This document shows, one piece after another, positions 1 through 27,942 of a stretch of 64,000 bases of DNA (the first letter of the stretch is position 1; every line of letters begins with the position of its first letter). The stretch is taken from positions 71,861 to 135,860 of IMG/VR virus record IMGVR_UViG_3300042526_000402. The stretch is one strand, 5' to 3'. The position numbers and the translations under genes are program-made. This DNA is from a virus. Under the pieces are notes generated by a model that had not been told where the DNA came from, did no database searches, and saw nothing but the letters and a program-made list of their open reading frames with translations.

Positions 1-762
1 GTCTACATTAAGTTTATAAAGACCTTTTTTCTCAAGCATTTTACCAATATCTTCAGGTACAGATGCAACAAAATCAATATTAGAAATTAATGTACCTAAC
101 TCAACAAATAACTCTTTTATATTAGGAGAAGACATCAGTCTTCCTTTAAAGACATTATTTTTAGCATCCCATTCACCAAAGAAATATGTACTTCTTGATT
201 TAAAAACTTGTAAATTTTCAAACACCTGATTAAATTTTTCTCTAGTAATAGCTTTACCCTCTCTTTTTCTATCCATAAGATTAACATAGTTATTATAGAT
301 ATTATCTATTTCTTCTTCAGGTAGATTTAGGTAAGTACCATTAGATACAATTTTAAAAGAGTTAACATCTGGTAATTCAGATTTTTCTTCTCTCATAAAT
401 TGAGGACCCTCTTCATCAGTATTAGGTACAATTGACTGTTTAGCTATTTCATTTAAAGCATCATACTTACTTTTTAGTACTTGTAATTGTTCAAACAGAG
501 GTACATTAGGCTCTGCTCTTTCAACTTTAAATGTGGTATCTCTATAGTATGTTGAATTTCTTTCATCAAGAATTTTCTTACTTGTTGTATCAAACAGCAT
601 TTGACCATTTGTAACAAGACCATATCTATCAATTGCTAATTGTGTTAGATACTTGTTTGCTTTTTCAAACAATGAGTCATTGATGATTTTTCTTGTATCA
701 TCAATGACTTTTACTTTTCTCAGAGTATTAATTGCATTTACTGTAACTTCACAAACCATCAT
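1..762 (-). CDS. Large virion/ejection protein, N-terminal part only (runs off the window edge)
   Basis: Not in the ORF track. Manual translation from ATG at 762 (TAATG overlap with the RNAP stop) gives MMVCEVTVNAINTLRKVKVIDD...GLYKLNVD, open for 254 codons to position 1. Position after the vRNAP matches the last crAss-like cargo gene. Confidence 0.8.
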   Translation of the reverse strand, partial: MMVCEVTVNAINTLRKVKVIDDTRKIINDSLFEKANKYLTQLAIDRYGLVTNGQMLFDTTSKKILDERNSTYYRDTTFKVERAEPNVPLFEQLQVLKSKYDALNEIAKQSIVPNTDEEGPQFMREEKSELPDVNSFKIVSNGTYLNLPEEEIDNIYNNYVNLMDRKREGKAITREKFNQVFENLQVFKSRSTYFFGEWDAKNNVFKGRLMSSPNIKELFVELGTLISNIDFVASVPEDIGKMLEKKGLYKLNVD

Positions 763-3700
763 TAAGAACATTTAAAAGGATCAGACTCAAAACCATACTT
801 TTGTAAGATCTCATCATCTGACACACCTTGTTTATTATATACTATATCACTTACCTGTTTATTCAAAAGAGAACCTGGATTCAAATATCTTAATTTTTCA
901 TATAACTCTCTACTTAAATATACAAATAAATCTTGAGGCATGAGGTCTGGATTTCCAAATCCTGCTGTAGGAAGTGCTATATCAAACCCTTTTTCTTTAG
1001 CATTTTCAGCTGCACTCAAAATTTTACTCCAGTATTTTTTAATTTCTTCTTTATCATCTGCTGATAAGTTAGCAAAATTATCATCTTTACCATCAGATAT
1101 CAAAACTGGAACAGTCATATCTGGAGCATGTAATTGTAAAATAGATTGGTCAGTAAAGTTTTTGTTTCTACCATCTTGAAGTTCAGAATTAGTATAAGAA
1201 TGTAAGAAAATTACTTTAGAGTTTTTATTTGTAAGATTTTTATAATAAATACTATCTTTATCTACTGAATCATACAAGAATACATTTGGTTCATTAGTCT
1301 CAATTAAATCAGATTTAACATCTACTAATCCTAATGGAGTAGCAAGTGATTCAACACTAGTAGATAGTTGAGTATCATAATCAGTAATATCTTCAGATTT
1401 AATATCCTCAAGCATTTGTTTATATGATTCAGCATGTCTATCTATAGTTTCATCTGATACATTTGCTCTGTTTTCTCCTCTTACTAGTTGTGCTTTAATT
1501 CTTTGTTTGGCTAACTTAGCATTTAATGGCATAAGTTTATATTGAATATTAGCATTAGGTATTGCTTTTTTAATAGCTTCAACAAAAGGTCTTCTTTTAT
1601 CTTTAGTAAGATTGGTAGTATCAAACACTACTTGTTTACCTTGTTTAATAGCTTGTATAGCTCTATTAGCTGCTTCAATATAAATCTCTTTGTCTTTAGA
1701 TTTATTATTTATATCTCCTGTAAATTCAACTCTCATTGCATCAGGTTCTATGACTACTAAATTTTCTTGAGGTAAAGACTTTATAAATGTAGATTTACCA
1801 CTTCCGCTTGTTCCTATGGGAAGTATTACATCAGCTTGCTGTTGAGTTTTTGTCTTACTAACTTTAATTTTATTAATGTCAAAATTTGTTAAGTAACTTT
1901 TGAACTCTTTTTTAGTTGGGTTAGTCACCTTGTTATTAGCAAATTCAAATTTTTGTAAGTAATCACTAAGTAAATACTCTCTTCTTTCTGGATCATTTTC
2001 TAATACATTTAAAACTTCATTACCGGCATCTTGTATAATATCAATTACTTTAGTATAATCCACAAATGGAACTAGGTTATATGATGATTTGTTTATACCT
2101 GATTGCAAGTATGCAAAGATCGGAAGCATAGAAAACACCTCTGTTATTTTCTTTATGTCAGCATCATTAAGCTTTAAAGCTTTGGCATAATTTTTTAAAA
2201 CTACTGGATTAGCTAAGTCTTTTAAGTTACTAATATACATGTTAGCTTTAGTACTGTTAATATCTCTATCAGCAATACCTAAGTTAAATATAGTTTGGTC
2301 AAAATTTGATTCTGATTTTAATACTGCTAAAACATCAAACTTTCTAACTAAATCTGGATACTCATTTATGATTTTAGATACTCTATTACCATATGCTGTA
2401 TCTGCATTATTAAATAAGTGATAGAAATTAAAAGTATTATCTAATGCTTTTTCTGCTAAAAACTTTTCATACTCAGCTTTAGATTGAGAGTCTTCTTTAG
2501 GGAAAACACTTCTTAAATATTCTCTTTCTATAACAAACTTTTTGTACTGTTCAAAGTTTTGATCTTTTTCAAGTGCTGTAAAAGTCATAGGATCTACTTG
2601 GTGTAGACCTAATACAACATATGGGTTATCATCCTCAACATCATCTGTAGACCATGCGTTGTTTTCAAATTGTAATTTTAAAACTGAATCATTTACAAAT
2701 AAAGTTTTTGAACCATTGTTATTTGTTTTAACATATGCTCCAAAATATTTAGACTCAAAGTTTTTAACAGCCAGTTCTTCTTTTAAATCATAAGACATGT
2801 ATGTGTCTCCTAATTTGCTTTTAAGTAAAGCATTTTGGAATATATAACTTACAAAATCATTTCTAAATGCATTAATGAACTGCTTCTCATTATCTTCACC
2901 AAAAGTTTTTTTCAACACATCATCTAATTTACGTGTCTTCTTTAAGTCAATTATATAATTACTAAATGCTTTGTTATATCTCAATTTAAACAAAGGTTTA
3001 CTTAATGCTAGTGCTAGAGGTCCATTAAAGAAGGAACTGATAACAGAATCTTTCATTAAACTATTAATCAAAGGAGAAAGAACCTCATCTTCTAATAAAT
3101 CTTCTATTGTGCTCTCAGATAACTCAATATTTGATAACGTAGTATTAGTATTAGTATCAGGATTTGCATTCATCTTAATCTTAGTTATACCCTTGATTTG
3201 ATCTTCAATCTTCAAGTAATGTAAAAACAGTAACAAAGATTTGTTCTCTTTCTTTATATCTGGGTTAACAGAAGATTTTTCAATTAAATCCAACAAACTT
3301 TTTTCTGAAAAGAATTTATCTTCTCTACCTTTAAAAGCAGCTTCTAAAAGCTTATCTGCAGTATCTAATATAACAGCACCTTTTGCATTAGAAGGAAGTA
3401 TGTTTGTAGGAAAATTTTTAGCTATGACATTTTTCATAGCACTGAATTTAACCAATCCTCTAGAATCAACAGCTTTACCTAACATAGGTGCAAAAGTGGA
3501 ACCAATTAAACGTTGTTGTTCTACATAATCTCTAACTAATGGTTGTGACACAAAGTAAATAGCTTCTTTAACAGGTACTCCTGCTTTGATTAAAAACAAT
3601 AATACAGGTGCTACTTCATAGTTACCTTGAATAAAGAAAATCCAGGCATCTTTTTCAACATCCACCCAACCATTGATTGCTTGTGAGAATACATCTGATA

Positions 3701-6700
3701 TTTTATTTATATTATCAACATCATAGATATCTGAAAGAGAAATTCTTTTTTCTCCATCTACATCCATAGTTCTATGTCTTAGGGCAAGAGTAACATTTCT
3801 TGTTGTCTCTTTATCACCAGACTTACTCAAATAAGTGTTAGGAAGATTTGCTCCTATAGAATTAAACAAGATATTAAATGTATTTTCAATAGCTCCTAAA
3901 CCTAATGTAGCTTTACCAATCATGTTAGACTCATGCTTATATAAGTTATATCTTGTTTCAAGAATTCTTGTAGGGCTAAGTTGTTTATCCTTACCTTCTG
4001 TCATCTTAGTACCAAAAGGATTATAATCCATAACATATTTAGCTAATTCATCAGCTGTTTCTTTAAGTAAGAAAGTACCATTAGGTGTAATTAGAGATAC
4101 AAAGTTTTCAGGTAATTCTAATATTGCTTTGACATCTTTAATTAACTCATTTTCTAAACCTGCTTTTTGTTGTTTAAATAACTCATTTAAAGATTCACCT
4201 GCAGCATTTTTTTCTTTTACAGTTTTTTTAACAGCTTCAATATCAGCTAATGTTGGTTTAATTAATTCACCATTTAAACCAATATTAGTCATGAATATTG
4301 TAAGTTTATCAATATCAAAGTCACCCCCTGACTTAGCAACTATCTCAGCTGGAGGTATGATAATATTACCTGCTTGAGCTGGTAAGAATTGATAAACTTC
4401 CATAAACTCCATAGAGTTTAGACCCTGAACCGGAATCCTAACCCCTACAAGAGTTATTGCTTTTCTGTTAGCACCATCATTTGCATCTAACCATTCATCA
4501 TCTTTGATTGCTCGGTTTAATCTATCTATAGTCTCAACAGTTTCCCCTTTATATTCAAGATTCAACAAGTTAGCATAGTCCCCCTGTAATGCAATCATAA
4601 CCTTCATTGCTGCAGTTTTACCATCCGCCTTCTTATGATATGTAGGAAGTACATTGCTACCAACCCATTTTTTCTTTTCTTCATCTGTAGCATTTCTGAA
4701 ATTTTCTGTTTTAGTAACATTGTTTTCATACATTGCAGAAGACACTTGAACTAATGGTTCACCTTTAATTTTTTGCTTAATGATTCTTTTATTAATCATA
4801 GACAAAAGCACTTTCTCAATTTTAAGTACTTCAGGGTGATACGATAAGTCTATTGCAATCTCACCAGAATCTAATGCATCAATAAAGTCTATCAATTCAT
4901 TTCCATAAGCATCTTCTCTTTCTAGGTTAGCTCTAATAAGTTCTAACAATTTAGAAATACTGTCTTTATCTCTTGGTGCATATTCTCCTTCAGATACTTC
5001 ATCATAACCAATTTCTTCAAGTAATTCTAACTTAACTAACTCAGTATAATCACTTACATCTTTTAAGTATTTCTCAACAATTGGTTTAGCACTTGGAGAA
5101 ATAATATCACCATTTTTATATAAGTTGTCTAAAATCAACTTTCTCATCTGAGTAGAAAATATAGACTTGCCTTTAAATTCAGCATTTACTTCAGTTTGAT
5201 TCTTTAAGAATTCTGTAAAGATTGTATTAACAGTAAACTTACTGTCTTTAAGGAAGTTACCATCTTTATCAAAGATCTCATCACCATTTCCTACATGACC
5301 AATTTTAGAACCAGATTGATAAACAACATAGTCTACTTTATCTTGCATCATTTTTAAATGTAAATCATAAAGTGGTGTACCTTTTATTGCTACACCCGGT
5401 ATGATTGGATTAAGGGAAAACTTATGAAAAGATGTTACTGGTAATAATTCTGATTGCATATTTCCAGCATACTGTAATTTATAAGGAGGAAAAAATTTAA
5501 CTATATCTACTACAGAAACTTCTTCACCTTTAGCAATTTTTGTATAAAGTTCTTCTTGCTCTGGTAACCAGTTTCCTTCAAGATTTTTTAATTTTCTGTA
5601 ACCTTCAAAAGTAACATGACCTTGACCATCACCAATCTCCATACCTCTATAACCTTTAAGTGTTATTTCAGTAAGTTCTTTTGCTTTGGCTTTGTCTTTT
5701 AATCTTGAGTAGTAATCATCATATACAGCATCATAGTACTCATTATAATAAATTGACTCATCTACAACTCTTTCTTTTAAAATAGCAGTTTTCAAAGTAC
5801 CATCAAAATTTCTTGATGTTACACCATCATTAGCAAATGATTCTGCATAGATGTTTGGTAATGAATTTACATAAGTTAGTATTTTCATATCTGCAGAGAA
5901 GCTTCTACCACCCCCGCCAAAACCAGCATTTCTTTTATGGAATTCTTCTTTAGCGTGATTATACTGTGCAAAGTCTCCATATATTAAAACAGCAGTTTCA
6001 AATTTATGCATCCAAGAGTTGTAAGTATAGGCCTTCATCAAGGTCTCATTTACTTGCTCATTGGAAAGTTTTTCAAAACCAGGTACTCTTTCTTTTAATC
6101 CAGAGTCAATATATTTAGCTTTTTCTAATTCAGCTAGATTCTCTTCTGTAAGGGCTTGAAAGTATGCTGTAACATCTTTCTCTATTCTTGCTCTTAAATT
6201 AGGATTAGAGTTAATTACATCCATCATGTCAAAAGAAGTATCTTTAGTGTCTACTGCATTATCTATGATAGCATATAATTCTGTTTGTGTTTCTTCTGTA
6301 AGAACGTCATCAAATGCAGTAAATGCATTCCCAGCCATTGTCTCAGTTTTGTTCTTATCTTTTCTTTGTACCTTTCTGTTATAACCCTTGTAGTTTTTGA
6401 GAACATCTTTGTTTAAACCAAACTTAAATATTCTATTAGACTCAGCCATTATGTAGCCAGCAATGATATCAAAAGCTCTTGATTCACCAGGACCATATGG
6501 AGCAAAGTTTTTAATGTCTACATATAACTTACTGTCATCTTTAATAACACCTGTATCAATTTTACCAGTTACAGTCAAACCTTGAGCCATTTGTTTAGAT
6601 GCATGTCTCATAAATTCCTCAACTCCATTCATCAACATAGTGTGAATCTCTTGTAAGAATTTACTTGTTTTGTCCATAGAAGCTGTAGAAATACCTTCTT

Positions 6701-9700
6701 TCTTTTCCTTACCACCTTTTCTATCTTCTATTAACTGTGTACCAGCAACATTATTGATTAGTAAAGAGTTGTTTAATCTGCTTCCGTCAGGTTTTTTCTT
6801 ATCTCTCAAATTAAAAATAGAAGCTAATAATTGAGAATGTAAAGAATAAGGATTGATATCTTCAGATAACCAACGCATGTGTTGGAACTTGTTACTTGGA
6901 TCAGCTTGAACTCTTGTAAGTTCTTGCCATGATTTAGCGTGATTAATAGAAGTAATTACTCTTGTTGTTGTACTATCTAAGAAATGCTCCCATACTCTAT
7001 TTCCTTCAGGACTTAAAGCACTAAAATTTGAGTACTTATCAGAATTAGCAGCTTGTATTTTTGCTAATTCTTTTACTCTACTGTTTGAAACATTAGTTTT
7101 AGTATTAGTAATAGGGTCCTTAGTAACACCCTCCATTATATATTTGATAGGATTAGATGCAATAAATCTTGCTTCAACATTTGATGATGCTACAGCAGCT
7201 CTAATAGTTTTAAATATTTGGTCTACACCATATTTAATACCAAATTTTGGATCATCTACTATGTCTTTGATAGCTTTATTTGTATAATCTAATCTTATAC
7301 CTACAGCATCTAAGAAGTCTTTTGATAATTCTGATTTAAAGTTTCCTTGCTTATCTGTAAAAGTGCTAAAAACTTTTTTGATATCTAATACATACTTACT
7401 TTCTATTTCATCAAAAATTAAAAATTTGTTTGTAGATGGGATATCCATAACAAAACCGAAATTCCAATCTCTAATCACACTTGTTACAGGAAAGTCTGCT
7501 TTAGCCATTCTTGCATCATAAACAGCATCATTGTTTTTAGCAGGAGTTTTGTTTATGTTTAATTGCAAGTAAGAAATTCTTGGTTTCTTTAAATCTTGCC
7601 AAAAGTTCACATCTATACTAAACTCAGTATTGTCTTTGTATGTGGTAGAAGATGGGTTAGGTAGTAAACTTAAAAGTTGTTTTATCTCAGGTTCTGATTT
7701 AATTGCATTTTGTAACTTGGTATACATCTCAACTTTATCAAAAGATCCCGCAAGAATTTTAGCAAGCTTATTCCAAATAATATTAAAATCTACTAATATA
7801 GGTTCTCCAAACTCATTTAACTCATACTCAATATTAAACTTAGTCACACCATCTACAACCTCAGAAGTAAATTTACTTCTGTCAACTTTATAGATACTAC
7901 TTAAAATAGTTTTAGTAGCTTCACTAGCTTCATCTTTTGATGATATAGTATTTCCACTATCTAATTTAAATGTTTGAGATTGCTGCATGTTTGTAGGATC
8001 ATTATCAACTTCTACATAAGTATTTGCTAGAATTTTAAATCTTGAGTTTTCCAAGTGATATGTAACAACTCCAGACTTTTGACTTCCTTCTACAGATTCC
8101 CTTACATCTCCAAAATTGGTAATCATTTTTTCAATGAACACCAAATTACTTAAAAGATTATCTGGAACATCTTCACCATTTATTGCTAATTCTGCAGTCT
8201 GTCTTTTAAGATTTTCAAACATTGTTTTCAATCTCTTTTGAACAGTCTCATACATAGCAACACGGTTACTATTGTTGTAAAGAATTTTAATAGCACCTCC
8301 TGAATTATCCTTAGCTTTATTATAAGCCATGAATATTTTTGGTAGGATACTATCAATTAAACTTGCAGCCTTCAAAGACTCTGATTCTGTAAATTCAGTG
8401 TATTGACTTTTAAATTCTTTAAGGGGTCTGATTACTTTAGCTCTGTTAAGTTTAGTAAACATAAGGTTCTCTGTAGAAGGTTGCATATGTTGCAATAGCT
8501 CTGGTCTATTAGATGCCTCATATAACTTATCAAACAGTTCTTTAACTGCAGGAATATCTCTTGGTCTTAGTACAGCTTGTGTTCTAGACACTTTACCAAA
8601 GATGTTATTTAAGAACTGGTATATTCTTCTGAATATTTCACCCAAAAATCCTTTAGGTTCTTCTTTTTTACCTTTGCTTTTAGCATAATCTCTAAAATCT
8701 TCAGCAATATCTTCTTCAATTTCAAAGAAAGAGTTGTTGGCCCACTTTGGTTGGCCCTTTAATTCACTGTATAATTTAATTTTTTCTGCTTTTGTTAAGA
8801 ATAACTGCGAGAATCCGTGCCATGCTTCATGATATATATCTATTGGAGTACCTCCATCACCTTCATAAAGTGTAATACCAGTACCCATAAATGTTGCAAA
8901 AGCATCTGAGTTTACAACTTTTGATATTCTTTCTAAACCAATAAGACCTAAATGTTTATACTTTTTATTTTTTGCATGCTGACTATCTTTATTCAATGGA
9001 GAATTTTTCCACCAATCTTCAGCTGCTGCTTTGTCAGCTTCAGTAGTAAATAACTTATCTAAAAAAGTTTCCAGTCTTTTATTTCTTTCAAACATATCTG
9101 CATCAAAATCATCATCAAGATCCTCTGGCATGTCTGATAAATCTACTTTATCTATTGTATCATCAGTAATAAAATTTACTTCTTCTTCAAATGGTATTTC
9201 TTCTGAAACAGCTTCTGTTGCAATTCTACTCTCTTTATATTTTTCTTCATTAGTTTTAGGAGGAGCTGAGTTTACTTTTACATTTTCTGCTTCAATTGCA
9301 TATTCAGAATCTCCCATGTATTCAGCCGGAATCTCATATGTTAAATATGGATTATTACCATAAGCAAATTTTGCATATTCAACACTAAAATTAGCTTTAG
9401 CATAATTTTTAATAAAAGGAATATACATTACAGTATTAACAGTAATCTTATCACCATTCACCTCATAATCTGGAAAGTAACCAAGAGCCTTTACTTTCTC
9501 ATTAAACTGTACTGAAGCAGGATAACTGTTACCTTTTTTTGAAGTTTTATTAACTTTAAGATGACCTTTAATTATAGCTTTAGCTTTATCTGTGTATAAT
9601 TCATCTCCTTTTATTACAGTTTCTTTACCTTCAAAATCTTTAATACTAACTACTAGAGCACCATCTTTAATTTTAACAGTAATATTTTCTCTGTTGTATT

Positions 9701-11162
9701 TACCGTAAAAACCATTACCTGATTTTTCTAAACTATTATCAATAAATATTTCAAAATAAGCTTGTCTTTGCTCATTATCTAGTTCTTTACCTGTTGGAAG
9801 TTTAGCCTTTGTTGTTAAAACAGTTGCAACTTTTTCTGCAAGATTTTCATCAAAATCACCCCTTTGCATATCAATGATTTGCGGAATTTTTCCTACAGGA
9901 GTATCAACATGTACAGTAATAACAGGTCTACCTTTTTTAGTATTATTTTCATCTTTAATGATGTCATAAGTAGCTAAATCTTCTTCAGTAATACCAAGTT
10001 GTGATATTGGTTTAGCATATACTTCTGGAGCAATACCTAAACTACCACCAGTTATATTTAATTTAACAGGATTCTCAGATGACTCAACTTCTTTTCTTAG
10101 TTTATATAAACCATTCATCAAAGCAGTTTGCTCTTCAAATATTTCTTGAGCTCTTATATCAACCCAATCATTATCTATTTCACCACCTTGTGCAGCAAGT
10201 ATATCAGCTTCTCTATTTGCTATCTTTAATGCATCAACAAGAGTATTTTTGTATCTGTATAATTTTCTGTTTTCACCTTTACCAAGCGTTCTGCTGTATA
10301 ATAAAGTAAGTACACCATCAATCTTTTCAACTTTTCTTAAAAATGTATATACAACTGTTCCATTTTCAGCATCAGTTATGTTACCTTCTTTATCAAAGAA
10401 AAGGTAATTACCATCTGTATCAGTGATAACAGCATATATACCTACAGATTCACTATCTTCAGAACTTAGGTGCTCTGCTAATTTATATTCATTAGGAAAA
10501 GCTGATGACTTAGTTGCTGATAATATAATTGGAGTATCACCATATAAAACTTCAGTCTCATTAATAGAGCTGAAATTTATAGCAGCAATAATATTTTTTT
10601 GAACAATATTAAATACTGTTTTTTTAGGGTCATCAGGATTTCTATCATCTCCTTTTTTAAAACCTGCAGGATTTTTAGATGCTGATGTTTGTAAACTTGT
10701 TACATTAGGAAATTCAATTTTAGCAGAATTTCTACTTTCTAAATCTGATTGACTTAACTCACTATCATCAGAAATTACAACATCCTCTTTGGTTTTGTTT
10801 ATTTCTTTAAGCTTGTTTTCAACATCATCAAATGTTTCTTGTTCCTCTACAACATATTCACTAACTTTTTCAAGATCTTGAAATTGTCTACGCAAAGATC
10901 TTATAATATTAGTATCAAAGTCCATTTCATCTAAAAGGTCATTGATTTTACTATTGTTGCTAACTATATTAAAAATATCAGGAACTGCTTGTGCATATTG
11001 CAAAGCTTTTCCTGTATCTTCTGTAGCTTCAAGAACTCCATTATAAATCTTTTTTATTAACCCTTTTAAATCAAAACTTTCTGAAGGGTTAGCTCCAGAA
11101 AGTTTTTTATAGATTAATTTATATACATCACCAATTTGGTCTTCATTAAGTGAACAAGCCAT
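762..11162 (-). CDS. Virion-packaged DNA-dependent RNA polymerase polyprotein (crAss-like, phi14:2 gp66 type) with zincin and P-loop kinase domains
   Basis: 3466 aa. Catalytic DxDxD motif in SGGDFDIDK (4305-4322), preceded by RIPVQG and DGQG motifs typical of crAss-like vRNAPs. HEAWH...EEDIAEDF zincin motif (8817-8831). GTSGSGKST P-loop (1788-1814). Confidence 0.92.
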   Translation of the reverse strand: MACSLNEDQIGDVYKLIYKKLSGANPSESFDLKGLIKKIYNGVLEATEDTGKALQYAQAVPDIFNIVSNNSKINDLLDEMDFDTNIIRSLRRQFQDLEKVSEYVVEEQETFDDVENKLKEINKTKEDVVISDDSELSQSDLESRNSAKIEFPNVTSLQTSASKNPAGFKKGDDRNPDDPKKTVFNIVQKNIIAAINFSSINETEVLYGDTPIILSATKSSAFPNEYKLAEHLSSEDSESVGIYAVITDTDGNYLFFDKEGNITDAENGTVVYTFLRKVEKIDGVLTLLYSRTLGKGENRKLYRYKNTLVDALKIANREADILAAQGGEIDNDWVDIRAQEIFEEQTALMNGLYKLRKEVESSENPVKLNITGGSLGIAPEVYAKPISQLGITEEDLATYDIIKDENNTKKGRPVITVHVDTPVGKIPQIIDMQRGDFDENLAEKVATVLTTKAKLPTGKELDNEQRQAYFEIFIDNSLEKSGNGFYGKYNRENITVKIKDGALVVSIKDFEGKETVIKGDELYTDKAKAIIKGHLKVNKTSKKGNSYPASVQFNEKVKALGYFPDYEVNGDKITVNTVMYIPFIKNYAKANFSVEYAKFAYGNNPYLTYEIPAEYMGDSEYAIEAENVKVNSAPPKTNEEKYKESRIATEAVSEEIPFEEEVNFITDDTIDKVDLSDMPEDLDDDFDADMFERNKRLETFLDKLFTTEADKAAAEDWWKNSPLNKDSQHAKNKKYKHLGLIGLERISKVVNSDAFATFMGTGITLYEGDGGTPIDIYHEAWHGFSQLFLTKAEKIKLYSELKGQPKWANNSFFEIEEDIAEDFRDYAKSKGKKEEPKGFLGEIFRRIYQFLNNIFGKVSRTQAVLRPRDIPAVKELFDKLYEASNRPELLQHMQPSTENLMFTKLNRAKVIRPLKEFKSQYTEFTESESLKAASLIDSILPKIFMAYNKAKDNSGGAIKILYNNSNRVAMYETVQKRLKTMFENLKRQTAELAINGEDVPDNLLSNLVFIEKMITNFGDVRESVEGSQKSGVVTYHLENSRFKILANTYVEVDNDPTNMQQSQTFKLDSGNTISSKDEASEATKTILSSIYKVDRSKFTSEVVDGVTKFNIEYELNEFGEPILVDFNIIWNKLAKILAGSFDKVEMYTKLQNAIKSEPEIKQLLSLLPNPSSTTYKDNTEFSIDVNFWQDLKKPRISYLQLNINKTPAKNNDAVYDARMAKADFPVTSVIRDWNFGFVMDIPSTNKFLIFDEIESKYVLDIKKVFSTFTDKQGNFKSELSKDFLDAVGIRLDYTNKAIKDIVDDPKFGIKYGVDQIFKTIRAAVASSNVEARFIASNPIKYIMEGVTKDPITNTKTNVSNSRVKELAKIQAANSDKYSNFSALSPEGNRVWEHFLDSTTTRVITSINHAKSWQELTRVQADPSNKFQHMRWLSEDINPYSLHSQLLASIFNLRDKKKPDGSRLNNSLLINNVAGTQLIEDRKGGKEKKEGISTASMDKTSKFLQEIHTMLMNGVEEFMRHASKQMAQGLTVTGKIDTGVIKDDSKLYVDIKNFAPYGPGESRAFDIIAGYIMAESNRIFKFGLNKDVLKNYKGYNRKVQRKDKNKTETMAGNAFTAFDDVLTEETQTELYAIIDNAVDTKDTSFDMMDVINSNPNLRARIEKDVTAYFQALTEENLAELEKAKYIDSGLKERVPGFEKLSNEQVNETLMKAYTYNSWMHKFETAVLIYGDFAQYNHAKEEFHKRNAGFGGGGRSFSADMKILTYVNSLPNIYAESFANDGVTSRNFDGTLKTAILKERVVDESIYYNEYYDAVYDDYYSRLKDKAKAKELTEITLKGYRGMEIGDGQGHVTFEGYRKLKNLEGNWLPEQEELYTKIAKGEEVSVVDIVKFFPPYKLQYAGNMQSELLPVTSFHKFSLNPIIPGVAIKGTPLYDLHLKMMQDKVDYVVYQSGSKIGHVGNGDEIFDKDGNFLKDSKFTVNTIFTEFLKNQTEVNAEFKGKSIFSTQMRKLILDNLYKNGDIISPSAKPIVEKYLKDVSDYTELVKLELLEEIGYDEVSEGEYAPRDKDSISKLLELIRANLEREDAYGNELIDFIDALDSGEIAIDLSYHPEVLKIEKVLLSMINKRIIKQKIKGEPLVQVSSAMYENNVTKTENFRNATDEEKKKWVGSNVLPTYHKKADGKTAAMKVMIALQGDYANLLNLEYKGETVETIDRLNRAIKDDEWLDANDGANRKAITLVGVRIPVQGLNSMEFMEVYQFLPAQAGNIIIPPAEIVAKSGGDFDIDKLTIFMTNIGLNGELIKPTLADIEAVKKTVKEKNAAGESLNELFKQQKAGLENELIKDVKAILELPENFVSLITPNGTFLLKETADELAKYVMDYNPFGTKMTEGKDKQLSPTRILETRYNLYKHESNMIGKATLGLGAIENTFNILFNSIGANLPNTYLSKSGDKETTRNVTLALRHRTMDVDGEKRISLSDIYDVDNINKISDVFSQAINGWVDVEKDAWIFFIQGNYEVAPVLLFLIKAGVPVKEAIYFVSQPLVRDYVEQQRLIGSTFAPMLGKAVDSRGLVKFSAMKNVIAKNFPTNILPSNAKGAVILDTADKLLEAAFKGREDKFFSEKSLLDLIEKSSVNPDIKKENKSLLLFLHYLKIEDQIKGITKIKMNANPDTNTNTTLSNIELSESTIEDLLEDEVLSPLINSLMKDSVISSFFNGPLALALSKPLFKLRYNKAFSNYIIDLKKTRKLDDVLKKTFGEDNEKQFINAFRNDFVSYIFQNALLKSKLGDTYMSYDLKEELAVKNFESKYFGAYVKTNNNGSKTLFVNDSVLKLQFENNAWSTDDVEDDNPYVVLGLHQVDPMTFTALEKDQNFEQYKKFVIEREYLRSVFPKEDSQSKAEYEKFLAEKALDNTFNFYHLFNNADTAYGNRVSKIINEYPDLVRKFDVLAVLKSESNFDQTIFNLGIADRDINSTKANMYISNLKDLANPVVLKNYAKALKLNDADIKKITEVFSMLPIFAYLQSGINKSSYNLVPFVDYTKVIDIIQDAGNEVLNVLENDPERREYLLSDYLQKFEFANNKVTNPTKKEFKSYLTNFDINKIKVSKTKTQQQADVILPIGTSGSGKSTFIKSLPQENLVVIEPDAMRVEFTGDINNKSKDKEIYIEAANRAIQAIKQGKQVVFDTTNLTKDKRRPFVEAIKKAIPNANIQYKLMPLNAKLAKQRIKAQLVRGENRANVSDETIDRHAESYKQMLEDIKSEDITDYDTQLSTSVESLATPLGLVDVKSDLIETNEPNVFLYDSVDKDSIYYKNLTNKNSKVIFLHSYTNSELQDGRNKNFTDQSILQLHAPDMTVPVLISDGKDDNFANLSADDKEEIKKYWSKILSAAENAKEKGFDIALPTAGFGNPDLMPQDLFVYLSRELYEKLRYLNPGSLLNKQVSDIVYNKQGVSDDEILQKYGFESDPFKCS

Positions 11163-14100
11163 TATTTACAGTATTTAGAATTATCTTTTAATTTATTAAA
11201 TATATCATCATCATTTTCATCTTCAGCCTCACTTTCTAATTTAATGATTTTATCCTTAGCATTAGAGAATTTTTCAAGATTATCATGAGATTCTTTTGAT
11301 AATTCTTTATCTTGTTCTGTTACTGGGGCTTTACCAACTTTTTCTTTTTCCATTGCTTCTTTAGAATACATAGTGAAGTTATTTTTAATTTCTTGTTCAG
11401 TAAACACTTTCTTAGTGTCTGTACCATAAAGTTTAACAACAACTTGATTAGTGTCTTTATTTATCATGAACACTTCTACTACAGAATTTTCTGCTCCTTC
11501 AAAGATAGGTTTTTTTGAGATAAGTAATGTGCCTTTTTTAATTGTATCTGCGGATACATTTGGCAATTCTTGTTCTCTTTTTTTATAAGCTTCTTGTATT
11601 GTAGTATAAGAAATATCTCCTCTATTATTTATAGCATCTTCAAAAGCTTTATCAAGTTCATCTTTATCTTTAGCTTTATTAATAGCTTCAAAAAATGATG
11701 GGTTTTCTCCTAATTCTTTTTCTTTTTTAACTGCTGTAAGAGAAGGTTTAATACTGCGAGCACTGTTAACTATTTCTTTGAGTTCATCTGTTGAGACTGT
11801 TTCTCCTTTTCCAGATAATCCAGGAACTGTTTCTGCTTGTCTGTTGGAAGACTTTTCATTCTTAGGTACACCAGACCTTTTCTGTACTTTGCCGGCATTT
11901 GGTCCGAAGACTTTGTTTGCTGCTGCTTGTTGTTTACTGAACCTTGCTTTCTTGGTTTTTCCATCTTTTATAATTTTGATTAAATTTAAATCATTTTTTA
12001 ATTGTAACAAACTATTTATTTGGTTAGATATATCATCTACTAAGTCACCTCTATTAACAACTGACACACCTAAACTATATAATTCATCAACTTTTTGGTC
12101 AATCCATTTATAAATATAATCTAATTCACTAATAGCAATACCTTGAACACCTACTTCAAATAATATATCTAATGTTTCAGGATACTCTTCAGTGTCTAAT
12201 ATTTGTGTGATAGCTTTACTAACTGCTGCTGATAAACTTAATCTATCCATCTCTTTAAGATGTTTCTTTTCATCTTGAGGCTTGAATGATTTAGTTGCTT
12301 TCTGAAAGCTGTTAGGTAAAGAATTTAAAGCAAATATATAATCATTTGCATTACCACCTTTTTGAAACACTACATCATTAGTATTTAATAAGTCTTGTTT
12401 TTCTTTTTCAAGTCTAGTAACACGGTCTTTAAGTTGAGAAATTTCATTTAACAAATAGAATTGAGAAACCTTGCTTCTTTTGATATCTTTAGGCTTAACT
12501 AATTCAGATAATCTTTTGATTTCACCAAGAGCAAATACAATTTCTTCATCTATTTCAGAAATTATTTTATCATTTCTTTTATAGCTTAACCCAACAATTG
12601 ACCCTGACTTATCTCTTACTACATCATAATGTACACCATTGATAGTTGCTTTAGTTTCATCAGCATTATCAAACTTAGCTTTTATAACTTTGCCGTTAAC
12701 CTTATTTGTTTGGAAAGGGAAAGTAATACCAGTAATCACAGATATTCCTAAATCCATTGTATTTAATGAACCGTTTGTAGCAGGTTTAAAATTATGATAT
12801 ACTACTTCAATTTCCTTTTCAGGTTTATCTAATAAAGCCTTTGTATCAGCAATAGCTTTTTCAAGTTGTTCTCTTATATCAGATTCAGTTTCTGTATCTA
12901 AATCACTTTGAAATTGCCCTATCATTTGTTTAAGCAATGCTTCATCTTTAACAGTATTTTTCTCTACAGCAAATGAACCATCTTCTAACATGATTAACTT
13001 ACCAGCAGAACCATTAAACATTACTGTTTTGTTTACCAAATCATTTAGAGATATGTTTACTAAGTCCTCTGTTTCTTCTAGTACTTCTGGGGTAGATGTT
13101 AATTCATCAGTTCCCGTATCACCAGAATCATCATCAGCTTCTTCCTCAGTAAATTCTGGTTTAATCATCATTACACCATATTCTGAAACAGCATCTAAGA
13201 ATGGTAATTCATAGTAACCTGGAGCAAGAACTTTTTTACTAGTGCTACCATCTTTATTTACTACATCATTACCTTCAGCATCTTTAACAGTTACTTGAGC
13301 TTTATCAATATCATTTACATAACCCTCTGTATTTACATTTATACCTAATGGTAATATTTGTAACTTGCTAACTTTTATACCGGTCATGTTATAAAACAAT
13401 GTAGCATAAATTGATAACTGAGCTTGGTGTTTTATTCTGTTATAACTGTTTTCAGACTCATATCCATCCCAATTTTTTGAAGTTTTGATATCTATAATCA
13501 TTACTTCTCCTTTAGCATTAACAGCTAATAAATCTATCTCACCTGTTATACCTAAAGTTTTATCAAACACTAGTAAGTTTTCTGGAAACAATACAAACTC
13601 CCCGTCAATCATTTTACTTCTTATAGAAGAAACAATACCGCCTGGACCAAATAGTCTATTAAAAGCTTTCTCAGACATGAATTCTGAAACCTTATATTCT
13701 ACTCCATTTATATCTATGCTACCTGTGTAATTAACTTCAGCAAAACCTTCACCATTACCAGTATCAATAGTTAAGAATTTTCTGATTAATTCATCAACTT
13801 TTGTTCCCGCCTCTGAAGATTCAATAAATGCATATTTATCTATTGTTTCTCTAACACCTTCAACTGTAGGATTTTTTCTTAAATCTGCTTCTATTCTTTC
13901 AATTTTAGATTTAGAATTAAAAGCTTTAGATCTTTTAGCAAGTAGTTTAAACTTATCCATAAAGATATCTACAGCCTTTTGAGGATCAGTTTCATTTTCT
14001 AAAATTTCAGCAAAAGTATTTGCATAAAAATCTTTTCTGTTATATCCAGTCCAAGCTTTACCAGTTATGTCTTCAGTAATTTTAGCTGCAATTTCAGTAA

Positions 14101-17100
14101 CCCTTTTTAATTGTGTACTTGGTTCTGTAGTAGTTTTATCCAAAGCAGCTAATTCTTCAAAAATACTAGATACACCATTAAATACTTTTTCTATTTCTGA
14201 TTTAAGTGTGGGGTTAGTTTTTATTAATGATGAACTGGCTCCATCAAGATAATCTTGATAACCTGATACATCAATATTACCTAATTTACTTTGCCAATCT
14301 TTTAATATTATTGCAATTGCAGCATAATTCTTAAAATCATAAATACCATTATTATCTTCATAAGAAACATCTAGATTTAATCCACCAAGGGGAAGTAATG
14401 ATAATAATTGTTGATTATTACCTTCTACTTTTGCAATTGGTTTATCATATTTATAATTTTTATTTAAACTATCAAGTATTTGTTTAATAATAGGATTATT
14501 ATAACCATCTTTATAAGTATCAGCACCTGCTTTTACAAGCCAGTCTCCACCATTAAAAAAGAATGGATACCACTCACCTTTTGTTTTACTACTAGTTCCT
14601 TGTGAGCTTCTGTATACAGGTACTATTGCTCCATCAATATTAAATACTATTGCATCTCTGCCAGTAGATTGTTTAAAAAATGCACTATTATTAATTTTTT
14701 CTACATAACCTTGTTCTGCTAACTTATCTAAAATTTCTGGTAATGCTGCTCCTAGTTCAAATTGAGACGTGATAATATCAGCAACTCTACTTCTTTTCTC
14801 TATATCAGCTTTTTTAGCTTCTATATCAGTAGAAACAGTCTCTTCACCAGCAAACTTTCTAGTTTTTCTACCTTCCTCATCAAATACATCTTCTACTTCA
14901 TCTCTTCTGTTAATTACTCTTTCAATAATAGTATCTACTACTTTTTGAGCAACAGACTTAGGCTTGTATGTTTTAGCTATAGCATCAAGATAACCTTGAA
15001 GATTTTCCAAGTCTTCATTTAAGTCTGCTTTTTGCTGTTCTGTAAGGTTATTACCTTTAGCATCCTTACCTGTTTCAGATAGTTTTTTTAATTGTTTGTA
15101 TAACTGATTTAATGCAAAGATTGTATCTCCAGAAGTTACTTGCTTCTTGTTGTACTTTAGGAAAGGTGGTTCTTTTAACTTTTCCGCACGGGCTTTTGAT
15201 TCAGCAAATGCTTTTTCATTATAAACCTTAATTATTTCTCTAGCATCACTCTGAGGTGATTCAAGCCATCTCTCTCTTCTAGATTCATACTCTGCAAGGT
15301 TTACCTCCTTCAATGATGCTTTGTCACCTATTTCTTCTAAGAACTTATCAAAAGATATATCTAACTGAGCTTTTAATTCATCAGGCATTTGGTCATAAGG
15401 AGTATTTACAGTAATTTCATCTACAGTATCTTCAGTTATACCTTTTTGTGCAAAACTTTCTTTTACTTCTTTTTCAGATTCATCATAAGAAGCATTAATT
15501 TGCTCTACTTTTTCTGTGTAAACATTAAAAGCTTTAGTAGATTCTACATCAAATATTTCTGCAGGTTCTTGACTTAACACTTGTTTTTGTGCATTAATTG
15601 ATTGTGCCAAAAATTCTGGTAAAGACATTATAGAAAGACCAGCTTTAAGCACATCTTCTTTAGATAAACCAGGAGTATAAATTTTTGAAACAAGAGCTTG
15701 TAATTCTTGAATAACAGCTGGGTCACTATCATCTAATGTCAAAAGCTTGTCTAAATCTTCTTCAGAGATTATGTTTTCAGCAACTAATGCATCAACAGTT
15801 TTAATAATTTTTTTAACATCATTATCAGCTATAGCCTCTAAAGCATCTGTTAAAAGTTTTATATCTGCTTCAGCTTTCTTTTTATCTTCTTCAAGTTTAG
15901 TATTAGCATCAGTAATAACAGTATTTTCTTGTTCAACTTCAGAAAGAGTCCTACCTATTTCATCCGCAAATTGTTGCTCATATACTTCTCTAGCCTCTTT
16001 TATTTCAGCTTCTTTTGCAGTCTTTAATTCATTTAATTTATCATCAAGCTTTTGCTTGTCTGTCATTGGTTCTCCTGCAGGTTTTTTTGCTAAAGCATTT
16101 GAAGCTCTCATAAATATTTCAGCATACTCACCATACAAAACACTATTTTCATTAATGATCATATTGTTTGTAGTGTCAATAAATTCATCTGGAATATTTT
16201 TTGAATCTTCAACCCAATCAGCAAATTTATCTAAGTCAACATAAATACCTTTACTTGCAAGTTCATTAAGTACTTCATTCTTTTCTGCATTTGCAAACTC
16301 TTGATTTACAATGTCTTTAACATAATCTTTTCTGTTATCATACATGTTTTTCATCCACTGGAAATTTCTTTCCACATGCTCATTAAACTCTTTAGGATCA
16401 GCAAGAATATTTATGTAATCAGATAGTATGTTTTTATCTTTTACTAATAAATGAGTGTCATAAAGAGAATCAAATAGTTCTTCAAACCCACCATTCTCAT
16501 CAATTTCATTTTGTAACTTAATTCTGTTTTCATTGCTTCCTGCAATTGCATCAAGTACATTCTTAAAAGTATCAGCATATTCTTGACGCAATTCTGGAGA
16601 TATATCAGAACCAGTTTCTTGTACTTGTGCTTTTTCTTCAGGTGTACCAAAAGCACTAACAAACATATTAATACCAAGAATCTGTGATACTTCTTGCTGT
16701 GTCTGTTGAAATCTATAAAGAGAAGATAATAGTTTTCTTTTTTGTTCAATCTCTTGTTGTGTTTGAGGGTCTCCACTTTTAGTACCTAATTCAATATCTG
16801 ATTTAAGCATTTCAACTTCTCTGTTTAACTTATTTTCATTGTTAGTCAGTATAGAAAAATTTGAAAAAGAATTCCCTGATATAGAAGATAACTTAGATAA
16901 AGAACCATATAATTTATCTAATCTTTTTAATGTATCATCAAAGTTAGATTGTAAAAATACAAATGAGTTAATACCTTCTTGATGAGCCATTTGGTATATC
17001 ATAGCTTTTTTGTATTCTTCAGAATCTTTTTTTAGATTTTGTGTAGAAAGTTGAGGCTTGAATTTTCTATATGCATAATCATATCTATTCTTAATTGTTT

Positions 17101-19118: not shown

Positions 19119-22100
19119 TTAATATGAAAAACCAGCATCTTTAGGTGTGATGCCAAAGAATTTTGTCATGTTTGCTAATGCTTTTTGATTATTTTCTTTA
19201 TGGAATTTTTGAAACATTTGTATGTTATGCTGATTAGCTGATTCTATTTTTGAAATAATCTCTTGTTTTGCTTCTGAAATATTTTTACCAAGAGCTAATG
19301 ATTCAGTATCATTTAAATCAGGTACTAAATTACCATCCTCATCTGCAACATGGTATTTAACATTATATCTAATGTCTCCTGATTGAGGATCTTTTTCAAA
19401 TACAAAATTACCACCATTGTTTGGATCAACATATCTAATTTTACTTTTAAGATTAAGCATAGCCTCACTTGGATCAATTTCATTTGATTGAAACATTTGA
19501 TTTTTCCATGAAGATTTTGGAGCTACATAAGTAATACCATTGTTATAAATCTTTTCTAATTCTGTTGCACTAATTTTGTAATCTCCATCTTTGAGATGTT
19601 TTTCTAAAAACTCTCTTGGAAATTTAATAGTCATAGCACCAGCATTTTCATTTTCAAATGCAATCTGACTCTGAAGTAGTTTAAACAATACAGGTTTGTC
19701 TTTTTGTTTTTGACTTGCTAGATATAACAAATCATTTGCTAATCTCTTGTATTTATTAAACTTACCAGCATTTTCTTCATTAACTTCTATTTTACCACCT
19801 TTATTTGGACCATCAATACTTATACCATGTAATCCATCTTGGTTTGAAAATGAAATTTTATTTATATCCTCAACAGTTTGTGCAAAATACTGATACCCAT
19901 CAGAACCTTTCCAACCTAAATTAACATCAATACTTGTTGGAACTGCTGCTAAACTACCTTTACCTTTACCTTGCATTTTAGTTGGAGCTACTGTTCTCAT
20001 ACCAATTTTATTATTAGAATTAGTAACAGTAGCATTAAATGTTTTGTTAAGCATTTTTAAAATTGAAGCTCCATCTTCATTATGAGTATAAACATCACCT
20101 GCTTTTATTTGAGATGTTGAACTAATGTTTGTTGTTGGTGATACAGTTGTATAAGAACCACCTGGTGTTTTTTTATTATTTGCATGAACAAGTTTCTTTT
20201 TTCTTCTATTTGCTCCAATAATAGAATTTTCAACCAAATCTTCAAATCTATCTTCATCTATTTTACCTTGTAAATATTGTTCATTATAAAGTTTTAAAAT
20301 TTCTTTACTTACTTGGTCAGATAAATTTGCAGATGCTAAAGCTGTAGATAAATCTTTTTGAATAACCTTATAATTATCTTTTTTAGCCTCTTTATAAACT
20401 TTAAAGAATTGTCTAACTTCTTCAAAATTACCAGAATCTTTAGCTTTACTTAAATAATTTCTTGAAAGAGAAGTACCATCATTTGCATAAGCCCATCTAT
20501 CCATTTTATCTTTCATATTAAAAAGCTTTCCTTGGACAGTTAAATTTCTTACTGTTTGTGATTTATTATTTCTATAGTCTTCTTTAATTTTTCTAAACTC
20601 TTGTAAAGCTTTATCAGGAGTTGTTCCTAATATACCAGCTAATTCAACTCTATCAATTTCTGGATTAGAACCTTCAATACCACTGGAAATTAAATTAATT
20701 AAGTTATTTGCATAACCAGTTGCATTTTTATCAACTGTTTGAAATAAGTAATCTCTATTATGCTTCATCCAGTTTACAGTCACATTACCTGTATTACCAG
20801 CATTAATAGGTTCAAACTTCTGAGTATTTTTTGTTGCAACTATATTACCATTTTTATCAAGTTCAGCGGCACCAATAGATAACATGTGCTCTTTAACTAA
20901 ATTATCTTCTTCAAATTTAGCTTTAGCAATTGCCATTTTTTCATCATGTTTTTGCTGATCTTTAAATTTAGAGATTTCAAAGTCATACTTCATTTTATCT
21001 CTCTGCATATTAAATGCATTTTGACTAGCATCTCTTCTCATGTTATGAGAATGTCTCATATTTTCAAGACCAATAGGATTTACTTTTGTATCATAAATCA
21101 TACCTATTTTAGCATAATCATTAGCAGCACCTAGTATATCTTCTTGAGCTAATAAGTTAGCATATCCAGAATCTATTTTATCTCTACTTAATTCTAAGTT
21201 ATCAATATCCAGACCACCTGTTTTAGCACCTAAACCTTGAGTATTTACAGTGTTTGATTGACCATTTAATTGTTCATTAAGTTTAGAGTTATGATCTTTA
21301 ATAAAAGATTCAACTTCAAGAGACTGTTGAATTCTTTGTAAATAAGAACCTTGTTTAGGATGTACATCACCTTTTTCTATGTCATTCTCAACAGAACTTT
21401 TCTTATTGTTTTCAACTGTTACTTTTTCATCAGCTTGTGTACTTTTTTCTGAAACAAAATTACTCAAGTGTCTGTACTGTTCTTGTAAGTAATCTTTTTC
21501 AGCAGCTTTTTTATCTCCATTAAACTTAGAAGCTCTTGTATCAATCTCAGTTTTTCTTTTTACATATGCTTCTGTGGCATAAACTCTTTGTAATTCTGGA
21601 TCATTTACATAGGTATTTAAAAATAATTTCTGTAAACTTGGAATTACAAGTTCACCATTTTTTTGTCTTACCATGTACATTCCTGATTTATCAGGTTGTG
21701 TAATGTCAACAGAAATATTATATTCTTTTGCTAAATCAAAATATTTTTTTTGAGCATTAACATAAGGTGTGTAAGATATATTAGAAAAACTTAAAACTTC
21801 AGAAGCATCCGCATTTTTAAATTCTTCTAATCTCATTTGCATAGCCTTTACACCAACATCCCAGTACCTAGCTCTTTCTTTTTCATCCTTACTATTTAGT
21901 AATGAGGTAGCCATTCCTACCTCAGAATTATAATTTTTTGTAAGTGCTATATCTTTTATTAAATTTTTATTTTCATAAAAAGGCTTGAAAACTTGTGTAG
22001 CTTGCTGAACATTTTGTTCTAATGATAAATCTAATCCTGATACTCTTTTTAATTCAAAATCAATTTTTTTAAGATAGTCATCTTTCATCTTATTACTATC

Positions 22101-22274
22101 ATCTCTTGTGACAGCACTGTTGTATAATTGACCGTATAAGTTGTTTATATTATTAAAATTGGTATCATATTGATTTTGCTTTGTTTGCAAAACATTCAGA
22201 TAAAAATTATAATCTGGCTGAAACGGTTGTATTTCAGGAATATAATCTGTAACACCTTGTAAATAAGTAGCCAT
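19119..22274 (-). CDS. Putative ejection/cargo protein
   Basis: 1051 aa, Cys-free, helical and Gln/Asn-rich. N-terminus MATYLQGVTDYIPEIQPFQPDYNFY. Syntenic with crAss-like cargo genes. Confidence 0.6.
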   Translation of the reverse strand: MATYLQGVTDYIPEIQPFQPDYNFYLNVLQTKQNQYDTNFNNINNLYGQLYNSAVTRDDSNKMKDDYLKKIDFELKRVSGLDLSLEQNVQQATQVFKPFYENKNLIKDIALTKNYNSEVGMATSLLNSKDEKERARYWDVGVKAMQMRLEEFKNADASEVLSFSNISYTPYVNAQKKYFDLAKEYNISVDITQPDKSGMYMVRQKNGELVIPSLQKLFLNTYVNDPELQRVYATEAYVKRKTEIDTRASKFNGDKKAAEKDYLQEQYRHLSNFVSEKSTQADEKVTVENNKKSSVENDIEKGDVHPKQGSYLQRIQQSLEVESFIKDHNSKLNEQLNGQSNTVNTQGLGAKTGGLDIDNLELSRDKIDSGYANLLAQEDILGAANDYAKIGMIYDTKVNPIGLENMRHSHNMRRDASQNAFNMQRDKMKYDFEISKFKDQQKHDEKMAIAKAKFEEDNLVKEHMLSIGAAELDKNGNIVATKNTQKFEPINAGNTGNVTVNWMKHNRDYLFQTVDKNATGYANNLINLISSGIEGSNPEIDRVELAGILGTTPDKALQEFRKIKEDYRNNKSQTVRNLTVQGKLFNMKDKMDRWAYANDGTSLSRNYLSKAKDSGNFEEVRQFFKVYKEAKKDNYKVIQKDLSTALASANLSDQVSKEILKLYNEQYLQGKIDEDRFEDLVENSIIGANRRKKKLVHANNKKTPGGSYTTVSPTTNISSTSQIKAGDVYTHNEDGASILKMLNKTFNATVTNSNNKIGMRTVAPTKMQGKGKGSLAAVPTSIDVNLGWKGSDGYQYFAQTVEDINKISFSNQDGLHGISIDGPNKGGKIEVNEENAGKFNKYKRLANDLLYLASQKQKDKPVLFKLLQSQIAFENENAGAMTIKFPREFLEKHLKDGDYKISATELEKIYNNGITYVAPKSSWKNQMFQSNEIDPSEAMLNLKSKIRYVDPNNGGNFVFEKDPQSGDIRYNVKYHVADEDGNLVPDLNDTESLALGKNISEAKQEIISKIESANQHNIQMFQKFHKENNQKALANMTKFFGITPKDAGFSY

Positions 22275-25071: not shown

Positions 25072-25080
25072 AATTCAAAG

Positions 25081-27918: not shown

Positions 27919-27930
27919 AATACTGCTGTA

Positions 27931-27942
27931 TAATATAATATA
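27931..27942 (-). promoter_or_regulatory. Candidate phage late-promoter element TATATTA (tandem copy)
   Basis: Minus strand TATATTATATTA 12 nt upstream of the 945-aa start. The same core occurs in four other intergenic gaps. Confidence 0.4.

Follow-up and report, generated by a model that had tools for sequence, protein, structure and literature searches.

The crAss-like phages are the most abundant viruses of the human gut. The question addressed here is how megadalton amounts of protein, including an RNA polymerase, pass through the narrow tail of such a particle in the right order. We analyzed a stretch of 64,000 nt (the window throughout this text), which spans bases 71861-135860 of the 135,860-base virus record IMGVR_UViG_3300042526_000402 (100% complete by CheckV), and concentrated on three consecutive giant cargo genes in it, named A, B, and C. 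The cargo of phage crAss001 consists of gp45, gp46, gp47, gp49, and gp50, and its extrusion order is probably set by packing and mutual interactions (Bayfield et al., 2023; PMC10172136). An earlier note on this DNA took it as established that the cargo is ejected unfolded; what has been published is a proposal of partial unfolding at ejection (PMC10172136). In phage phi14:2 the proteins gp65, gp66, and gp67 are all present in the virion, and the three are fused in some phages (Drobysheva preprint). Packaging of the polymerase in the virion and its activity on entry are known only for phi14:2 and crAss001, from the papers on these phages.

Inter-subunit disulfides have been described in crAss001 for gp57, the protein of the portal vertex, and for the hub and ring proteins of the tail (PMC10172136). 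The text of that paper does not contain the word "cysteine," and its seven mentions of "disulfide" concern the portal vertex protein and the tail or belong to a table title, with no cargo disulfide among them. The words "cysteine," "Cys," and "disulfide" are likewise absent from the text of the Drobysheva preprint, where the protein was handled in dithiothreitol (DTT) or tris(2-carboxyethyl)phosphine (TCEP). A literature search over main texts retrieved no paper on terminal cysteines or cargo disulfides in crAss-like phages. To this extent the earlier claim that such links had not been described holds; however, a precedent with a single link is in print. The electron cryomicroscopy (cryo-EM) structure of cyanophage A4 contains a disulfide between Cys1715 in gp27's long helix at the C-terminus and Cys5 of gp26, and its authors suggest a possible chain reaction at ejection (PNAS, 2025; PMC12002296).

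A long operon lies on the minus strand of the window (31% G+C, no N). The genes on this strand follow the order terminase, portal, major head protein, tail genes, and then A-B-C, as is typical of crAss-like phages. The features needed for the argument are given below, with residues counted back from a C-terminus written as negative numbers.

11162..19105, minus strand: gene A, a 2647-aa cargo protein with its sole Cys at residue 2646; orthologue of phi14:2 g067 and crAss001 gp47
11168..11170, minus strand: Cys codon of A, residue -2 (KYCK), beside the TAATG junction with B
762..11162, minus strand: gene B, a predicted 3466-aa virion RNA polymerase with Cys only at residues 3 and 3465
11154..11156, minus strand: codon of B Cys3 (MAC)
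4308..4322, minus strand: catalytic motif DFDID of B, residues 2281-2285, where B reads GGDFDIDK
768..770, minus strand: codon of B Cys3465, residue -2 (FKCS)
765..995, minus strand: C-terminal module of B, conserved over roughly the final 77 residues and ending DPFKCS, as seen in the consensus and invariant columns of alignment A1
1..762, running past the window edge, minus strand: 5' part of gene C, a LysM/zincin cargo protein; orthologue of phi14:2 g065
751..753, minus strand: codon of the N-terminal Cys of C (MMVC or MVC)
19119..22274, minus strand: 1051-aa cargo-block protein upstream of A, without Cys

The three proteins thus have nearly all their cysteines where the C-terminus of one faces the N-terminus of the next. 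Based on this pattern, on its conservation, and on the analogy with A4, we consider it rather likely that neighboring cargo proteins are joined end to end by disulfides in the particle. A recount returned every Cys coordinate that the earlier note had given for A, B, and C, including the N-terminal Cys of the downstream protein, with no other in the 257 residues of C inside the window. Reading of the sequence also confirmed that the A-B and B-C junctions are both TAATG stop/start overlaps.

B is identified as the Crassvirales virion RNA polymerase of the phi14:2 gp66 type by its motif and by sequence comparison. It matched phi14:2 g066 (E 1e-14) and a Kehishuvirus gp50-like protein (E 7e-17) in BLASTP, and in tblastn it matched 40 Crassvirales and related records at 22-30% identity. 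The motif, termed DFDxD or 1361-DFDID-1365 in the Drobysheva preprint, was likewise found in phi14:2 g066 (at 1361), the Kehishuvirus gp50-like protein (at 1483), and cr118_1 gp14 (at 3209). A matched phi14:2 g067 (E 2e-10) and a Kehishuvirus gp47-like protein (E 2e-7) in BLAST. Searches of Pfam, PHROGs, and PDB sequences did not detect the polymerase of B, nor did they identify the A protein. The full C is the third giant (2631 aa, genome positions 64736..72631) and the last gene of the operon. It has the N-terminal Cys, a second Cys at 913, and none at the C-terminus. An HEFxH motif lies near residue 854, and the first ~95 residues make up a conserved domain that begins M-x-C; the N-terminal 97 residues of phi14:2 g065 are 36% identical to C residues 2-99 (E 1e-12). 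C could also start at an in-frame ATG at 771 (MFLMMVC), but a start at 762 (MMVC) or 759 (MVC) is likely, because most relatives start M-x-C.

Cysteine is strongly depleted in the cargo block. Over the whole genome, the seven cargo-block open reading frames (ORFs) hold 9 Cys in 13,891 residues (0.065%), and the other 111 ORFs hold 397 in 27,809 (1.43%). At the background rate about 125 Cys would be expected in A, B, and C together; five were observed (binomial P = 7e-47), and four of these five lie no more than 4 residues (7 with the C start at 771) from a terminus that faces a neighbor. The depletion is specific to the cargo block, since the adjoining tail-fibre-like genes are Cys-rich (1.0-6.7%).

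Homologue sets were drawn from a large protein collection as near-length candidates for A, B, and C, a sample that lies apart from the three-way fusions. Among 120 homologues of B (41-100% identity), 117 had a Cys in the first eight residues, 119 in the last ten, and 116 at both ends; 102 had no internal Cys. Homologues of A (n = 77, 24-92% identity) had a Cys in the last ten residues in 74 cases and no internal Cys in 62. Only two of the 77 had a Cys in the first eight, and both were B-type proteins. The 120 homologues of C (37-100% identity) showed the mirror image: 110 had a Cys in the first eight residues, one had a Cys in the last ten, and 113 had none inside. The four B and ten C homologues without the terminal Cys begin (positions 14 to 1014) or, for one B, end (2801 of 3401) inside their nearest relative in the alignment. 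They represent truncated gene calls, because these ends lie well inside that relative. Two further apparent exceptions were set aside: P0190 has its Cys at -17, and P0142 is a fragment. The earlier prediction that the terminal cysteines would be conserved in homologues is borne out by these counts (B 116/120, A 74/77, C 110/120).

In the alignment of B (A1) the residues M1, C3, P3462, and C3465 are invariant, and the last ~80 residues form a conserved module behind a variable region; the last eight residues are conserved in the 120 homologues. The catalytic region was also searched against 1.84 billion cluster representatives (50%-identity clusters), which gave 2464 matches at E <= 0.001. Among the best 150 of these 2464, 131 were at least 3000 aa long; 118 of the 131 carried both terminal cysteines, 12 the C-terminal one alone, and one the N-terminal one alone, and 100 had no internal Cys.

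Co-occurrence across junctions was examined in 78 related loci (30-74% identity). Tight junctions were defined as those between plus-strand ORFs with a gap of -30 to +60 nt, both ORFs being at least 200 aa and one at least 1500 aa long; ORFs cut by a contig end were dropped and identical junctions counted once. The 157 distinct junctions comprised 107 with Cys on both sides, 50 with Cys on neither, and none that was discordant, as the earlier note had proposed for a C-terminal Cys and the N-terminal Cys of the next product. The junction in front of A accounts for 47 of the 50 Cys-free cases and provides a built-in control for tightly coupled genes. In the window, the Cys-free junction of the 1051-aa protein with A marks where the proposed chain begins and acts as an internal control. 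The spacing of the genes varied from -14 to +30 nt, the Cys codons were both TGT and TGC, and the Cys lay at -1 to -10 on the C-terminal side and at 3 to 7 on the N-terminal side.

Three loci that appeared to break the rule were rejected as exceptions. In L028, gene A occupies two ORFs with no Cys at the break, which results from a 205-nt out-of-frame deletion (7424-7632) relative to L021. L059 and L067 contain frameshifted genes whose first pieces keep MVNC and MAC. Apart from its deletion, L028 does not differ from L021 over the 300 nt that were compared about the break; it is either an assembly error or a defective variant. L063 has a 197-aa ORF (21952-22545) with three Cys (10, 22, and -8), flanked by C and a 396-aa link protein capped with Cys; this ORF departs from the rule of two-Cys caps.

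Fused and split genes follow the same rule. Five A+B fusions (P0190 and P0192-P0195, 4351-4521 aa) combine an A-like N-terminal part with DFDID near residue 3300-3600; each contains just one Cys, located toward the C-terminus, and none at the fusion point. The truncated fusion P0197 has no Cys in 4047 aa. The Suoliviridae giants cr118_1 gp14, cr56_1 gp39, cr4_1 gp26, and cr125_1 gp021 have no N-terminal Cys; in each, a Cys at -2 to -4 is followed by a Cys at 3 or 6 of the next protein. In cr118_1 gp14, the sole Suoliviridae giant with the fusion point mapped, no Cys is present at the inferred fusion point and the first Cys is residue 2041. The Cys pair is therefore lost where genes are fused, as expected in the earlier note, in the five A+B fusions and in cr118_1 gp14. 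The A+B protein of cr108_1 is one reading unit interrupted within DFDID; it ends with a Cys at -2, and the next protein has a Cys at 5.

The converse was seen in L076, where B is split and the new junction (...NCNI / MAC...) carries a new Cys pair. The extra 655-aa protein has exactly two Cys, at 3 and -1, and its C-terminal part is the module with which B ends in L049 and L061. Extra proteins were also found between B and C, of 252 or 261 aa in L054 and L059 and of 396 aa in L063, and these too have exactly two Cys, at 3 and at -1 or -2.

The interruption in cr108_1 (L083, 21104-21395) is about 290 nt long; the ORF before it ends ...AKAGSD and the next begins LYDIDK, and the insert may be intron-like. 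Under table 11, the annotated giant genes of cr56_1 (L084), cr4_1 (L090), and cr125_1 (L091) show 38-78 in-frame stops; in their late genes these Suoliviridae members therefore decode a stop codon as an amino acid.

The pattern is present in two cultured phages, phi14:2 and crAss001. In phi14:2, g067 has one Cys at -1, g066 has Cys at 3 and -2, and g065 has Cys at 3; these three proteins add up to 1797+2180+1421 residues, about 600 kDa. In crAss001, gp47 has one Cys at -3, gp50 has Cys at 5, 1334, and -9, and gp49 has Cys at 5 only. Kehishuvirus "tikkala" shows the crAss001 pattern, with the gp47 Cys at -3 or -2 across the two phages. In both, gene A lies on the strand opposite the B-type and C-type genes and the Cys is retained. 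The facing cysteines are also present in IAS virus, together with additional internal ones. In cr110_1 (Intestiviridae), gp39 ends ...MYCE, and an internal Met of gp40 gives a C-type-like start, MSC...; the annotated start of gp40 (L089, 12050-12100) is probably 14 codons too early, with the second Met giving MSC.... The nearest cultured phage by portal similarity (32.5%) is a cyanophage, Leptolyngbya phage Lbo-JY46 (L088). In its genome (14354-27260) a C-like protein whose one Cys is residue 4 comes after an A-like protein whose one Cys is at -1. The rule thus holds across Crassvirales despite splitting, fusion, insertion, or strand change of the genes.

In the proposed scheme, a single disulfide would join the C-terminus of A to the N-terminus of B, and another the C-terminus of B to the N-terminus of C. 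A, B, and C would then form one unbranched thread of ~8,700 residues, a polyprotein held together by disulfides instead of peptide bonds. The bonds would form after packaging or lysis, since conditions in the cytoplasm are reducing and the searches for a thioredoxin or glutaredoxin homologue in the genome came back empty. The position of the Cys within a few residues of the chain ends would keep the joint thin enough for the portal and tail channel, and the link would fix stoichiometry and ejection order. The host cytoplasm would reduce the links and free the polymerase. Other cysteines would have been purged, as any stray bond of this kind would produce a looped or branched chain, which cannot be threaded. 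The complete mechanism, with order, threading, and release, seems to us only about half as probable as the end-to-end joining itself. More tentatively than the joining, too, we suggest that throughout Crassvirales the polymerase cargo might be one redox-cleavable pseudo-polyprotein (~1 MDa here), in which fission and fusion are tolerated as a disulfide replaces a peptide bond; it would pass in single file and fixed order, cytoplasmic reduction would separate the parts and activate a self-inhibited polymerase, and small Cys-capped passengers could be spliced in.

The known disulfides of crAss001 demonstrate that thiols in crAss virions do get oxidized, and the A4 pair indicates by analogy that such a Cys signature can correspond to a real disulfide between consecutive ejection proteins. 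A complex prediction that paired the C-terminal 97 residues of B with the N-terminal 120 of C scored 0.01 against a mark of 0.32, in a run that had no controls and an uncertain partner fold; it speaks neither for nor against binding.

Several points weigh against disulfide joining. The bond in crAss phages is deduced from sequence. Searches of the phage's own genome for thioredoxin and glutaredoxin found nothing, so that no enzyme of the phage can be put forward as catalyst. Many of the hosts are strict anaerobes, and purification for cryo-EM exposes the virions to air; disulfides in structures may therefore form late. The cysteine purge is not universal, with 10 and 7 Cys in IAS virus gp056 and gp057, 7 in cr110_1 gp40, and 8 in cr125_1 gp020. 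In Lbo-JY46, a 674-aa protein (XAI97385, 31333-33357) has its sole Cys at residue 5 and no Cys-tipped neighbor. The A4 precedent is a functional analogy without homology: A4 gp26, gp27, and gp28 gave no phmmer match at E <= 1 to 461 crAss proteins and six phi14:2 and Kehishuvirus proteins. Finally, the cargo proteins are not resolved in the published crAss001 maps (PMC10172136).

Other explanations of the facing cysteines were weighed against the end-to-end disulfides. They might share a metal ion or an iron-sulfur cluster, which we regard as unlikely. The exactly four conserved thiols at the four termini of the three-protein form would suit such a site, and it would assemble under the reducing conditions of a cytoplasm or in an anaerobic gut, settings that disfavor disulfides. 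However, the two-protein forms have two thiols only, no second conserved ligand was seen and the residues flanking the Cys vary widely, joining all four termini at one site would turn B into a loop hard to thread, and the sole solved case, that of A4, is a disulfide. Slightly less probable is the possibility that each terminal Cys anchors its protein to some other virion component, be it the portal, inner capsid, another cargo protein, or DNA. Although disulfide anchoring of virion parts does occur, the outer ends (the N-terminus of A and the C-terminus of C) are without Cys, and 0 of 157 junctions were discordant. Independent anchors do not predict loss of Cys at fusions or its gain in pairs at splits, and other cargo proteins are without Cys or have close internal pairs only. 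Thiols at internal joints alone, none at outer ends, loss at fusions, paired gain at fissions, and two-Cys caps are what a linear chain predicts and independent anchoring does not.

The cysteines might also pair differently, with B closed N-terminus to C-terminus and A bonded to C. The 1-2-1 Cys counts fit this arrangement equally well, which is a further point against the gene-order chain, and in Lbo-JY46 the A-like protein is directly followed by the C-like one, with facing Cys; no DFDxD protein was present among the seven ORFs of the 50-kb stretch inspected there. Gene-order pairing is nevertheless favored because of the fusions: fusion of A and B would break both bonds of the alternative and force re-pairing, whereas in the linear model one link is replaced and the other left untouched, as seen. 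The A4 bond, moreover, runs from the C-terminal end of one gene product to the N-terminal end of the one that follows, and a closed 3,466-residue ring would have to pass the channel doubled. We consider this pairing very improbable. We give a negligible chance to the idea that a nucleotide signal for translational coupling, or an RNA element, at coupled junctions produces the Cys codons incidentally, even though both window junctions are TAATG with TGT codons a few bases away. A DNA junction motif is ruled out because gene A lies on the opposite strand in crAss001 and "tikkala," away from B, and keeps its Cys. The spacing (-14 to +30 nt) and the Cys offsets also vary, TGC is used as well, equally tight junctions before A are Cys-free on both sides in 47 relatives, and a purge of cysteine from whole proteins is a protein-level signature. 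Two more readings were rejected. The terminal Cys does not mark a protease or cleavage site, as there is no Cys at the fusion point in the five A+B fusions or in cr118_1 gp14. Split-intein or ligation chemistry was set aside: with the Cys only 1-10 residues from the ends, intein halves would not fit, and at the N-terminus the Cys does not occupy position 1.

Other features of the block are as follows.

1419..1829, minus strand: AAA_33 / polynucleotide-kinase-like domain of B, residues 3112-3248 (Pfam PF13671, E 3e-15; PHROG 505, E 8e-13)
22339..34702, minus strand: three Cys-poor virion-block proteins of 910, 945, and 2241 aa, whose only Cys are the close pairs 846/859 and 468/484

The AAA_33 / Zeta-toxin-like kinase domain occupies a variable "payload" region of B between the conserved core and the conserved last ~80 residues. 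In relatives of B (P0001-P0120) this region holds PF13532, PF25176, PF12694, PF08719, or nothing, with the terminal module unchanged. A segment of about 240 residues in A (~1428-1667; 14105-14824, minus strand) is 69-88% identical to segments of otherwise distant or unrelated proteins and also occurs near the N-terminus of the B-type proteins P0178, P0181, and P0183. It looks like a domain cassette moving between cargo proteins. The three Cys-poor proteins had no PHROG match. Internal cysteines of other cargo or ejection proteins occur as close pairs, at 468/484 and 846/859 in the window (27977-34702 and 22339-25071), at 390/398 in crAss001 gp45 (L087), at 1036/1039 in A4 gp28 (L086), and at -52/-43 in g069 (L085). 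Their close spacing fits a constraint against large disulfide loops. Seven tail-fibre-like ORFs lie directly upstream of the cargo block (40118-50231, minus strand), and five of them contain 2.8-6.7% Cys.

If the end-to-end disulfides are real, a conserved rule that can be read from sequence would give a concrete molecular handle on the passage of the cargo through the tail. It would explain why the block consists of one, two, three, or more genes in different lineages. Annotators could recognize members of an ejected chain and correct start codons, for example the MSC start of cr110_1 gp40. Disulfide-tied ejection proteins, so far seen in one cyanophage structure, would be widespread.

The closest known systems are the cargo proteins of phi14:2 (gp67-gp66-gp65) and crAss001 (gp47-gp50-gp49), which are orthologous to A-B-C, occupy the same position after the structural genes, and have an identical terminal-Cys pattern. 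The window proteins are larger than these counterparts and have other accessory domains. Fused "polyprotein" forms, mentioned in the Drobysheva preprint and represented by the Suoliviridae giants, contain the same domains in one polypeptide, so that covalent continuity exists naturally. The link in these forms is a peptide bond, for which the preprint's authors expect cleavage, whereas the separate genes studied here would be joined by a reversible disulfide. In Schitoviridae, the giant virion RNA polymerase and its ejection partners (N4 gp50, DEV gp71-gp73) are almost free of Cys, like the interiors of the crAss cargo proteins. According to the DEV paper, the N4-type ejection operon lacks Cys almost completely, and passage through the oxidizing periplasm is the explanation cited there (PMC11445570). 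These Schitoviridae proteins have essentially no Cys and no terminal pairs (PMC11445570), whereas the crAss proteins keep exactly the terminal ones. Suppression of interior Cys in A, B, and C is as strong as in the Schitoviridae type (5 vs. ~125 expected), and the terminal cysteines break the "no Cys" rule.

Passenger domains of autotransporters also cross a narrow pore, are Cys-poor, and tolerate only closely spaced Cys pairs. They resemble the cargo block in these close pairs but belong to a bacterial secretion system, and we know of no end-to-end links in them. The pre-ejectosome pair gp27-gp26 of A4 resembles A-B-C: one protein has a sole or near-sole Cys close to its C-terminus, and the product of the following gene has one close to its N-terminus. 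In the genome of cyanopodophage A4 (Anabaena phage A-4L), gp27 (1717 aa) has its sole Cys at 1715 and gp26 (1114 aa) its sole Cys at 5. The other A4 ejection proteins have no Cys (gp29) or a close pair (gp28), like the other cargo proteins here. A4 differs from the crAss block in having one link and two proteins, no RNA polymerase, and no detectable sequence similarity, and the bond is not put forward as a general phage rule in the main text of the A4 paper (PMC12002296). A disulfide with one link is therefore known from A4; what would be new in Crassvirales is a chain of several links that includes the virion RNA polymerase, together with its order-wide conservation and the rule followed at fissions and fusions.

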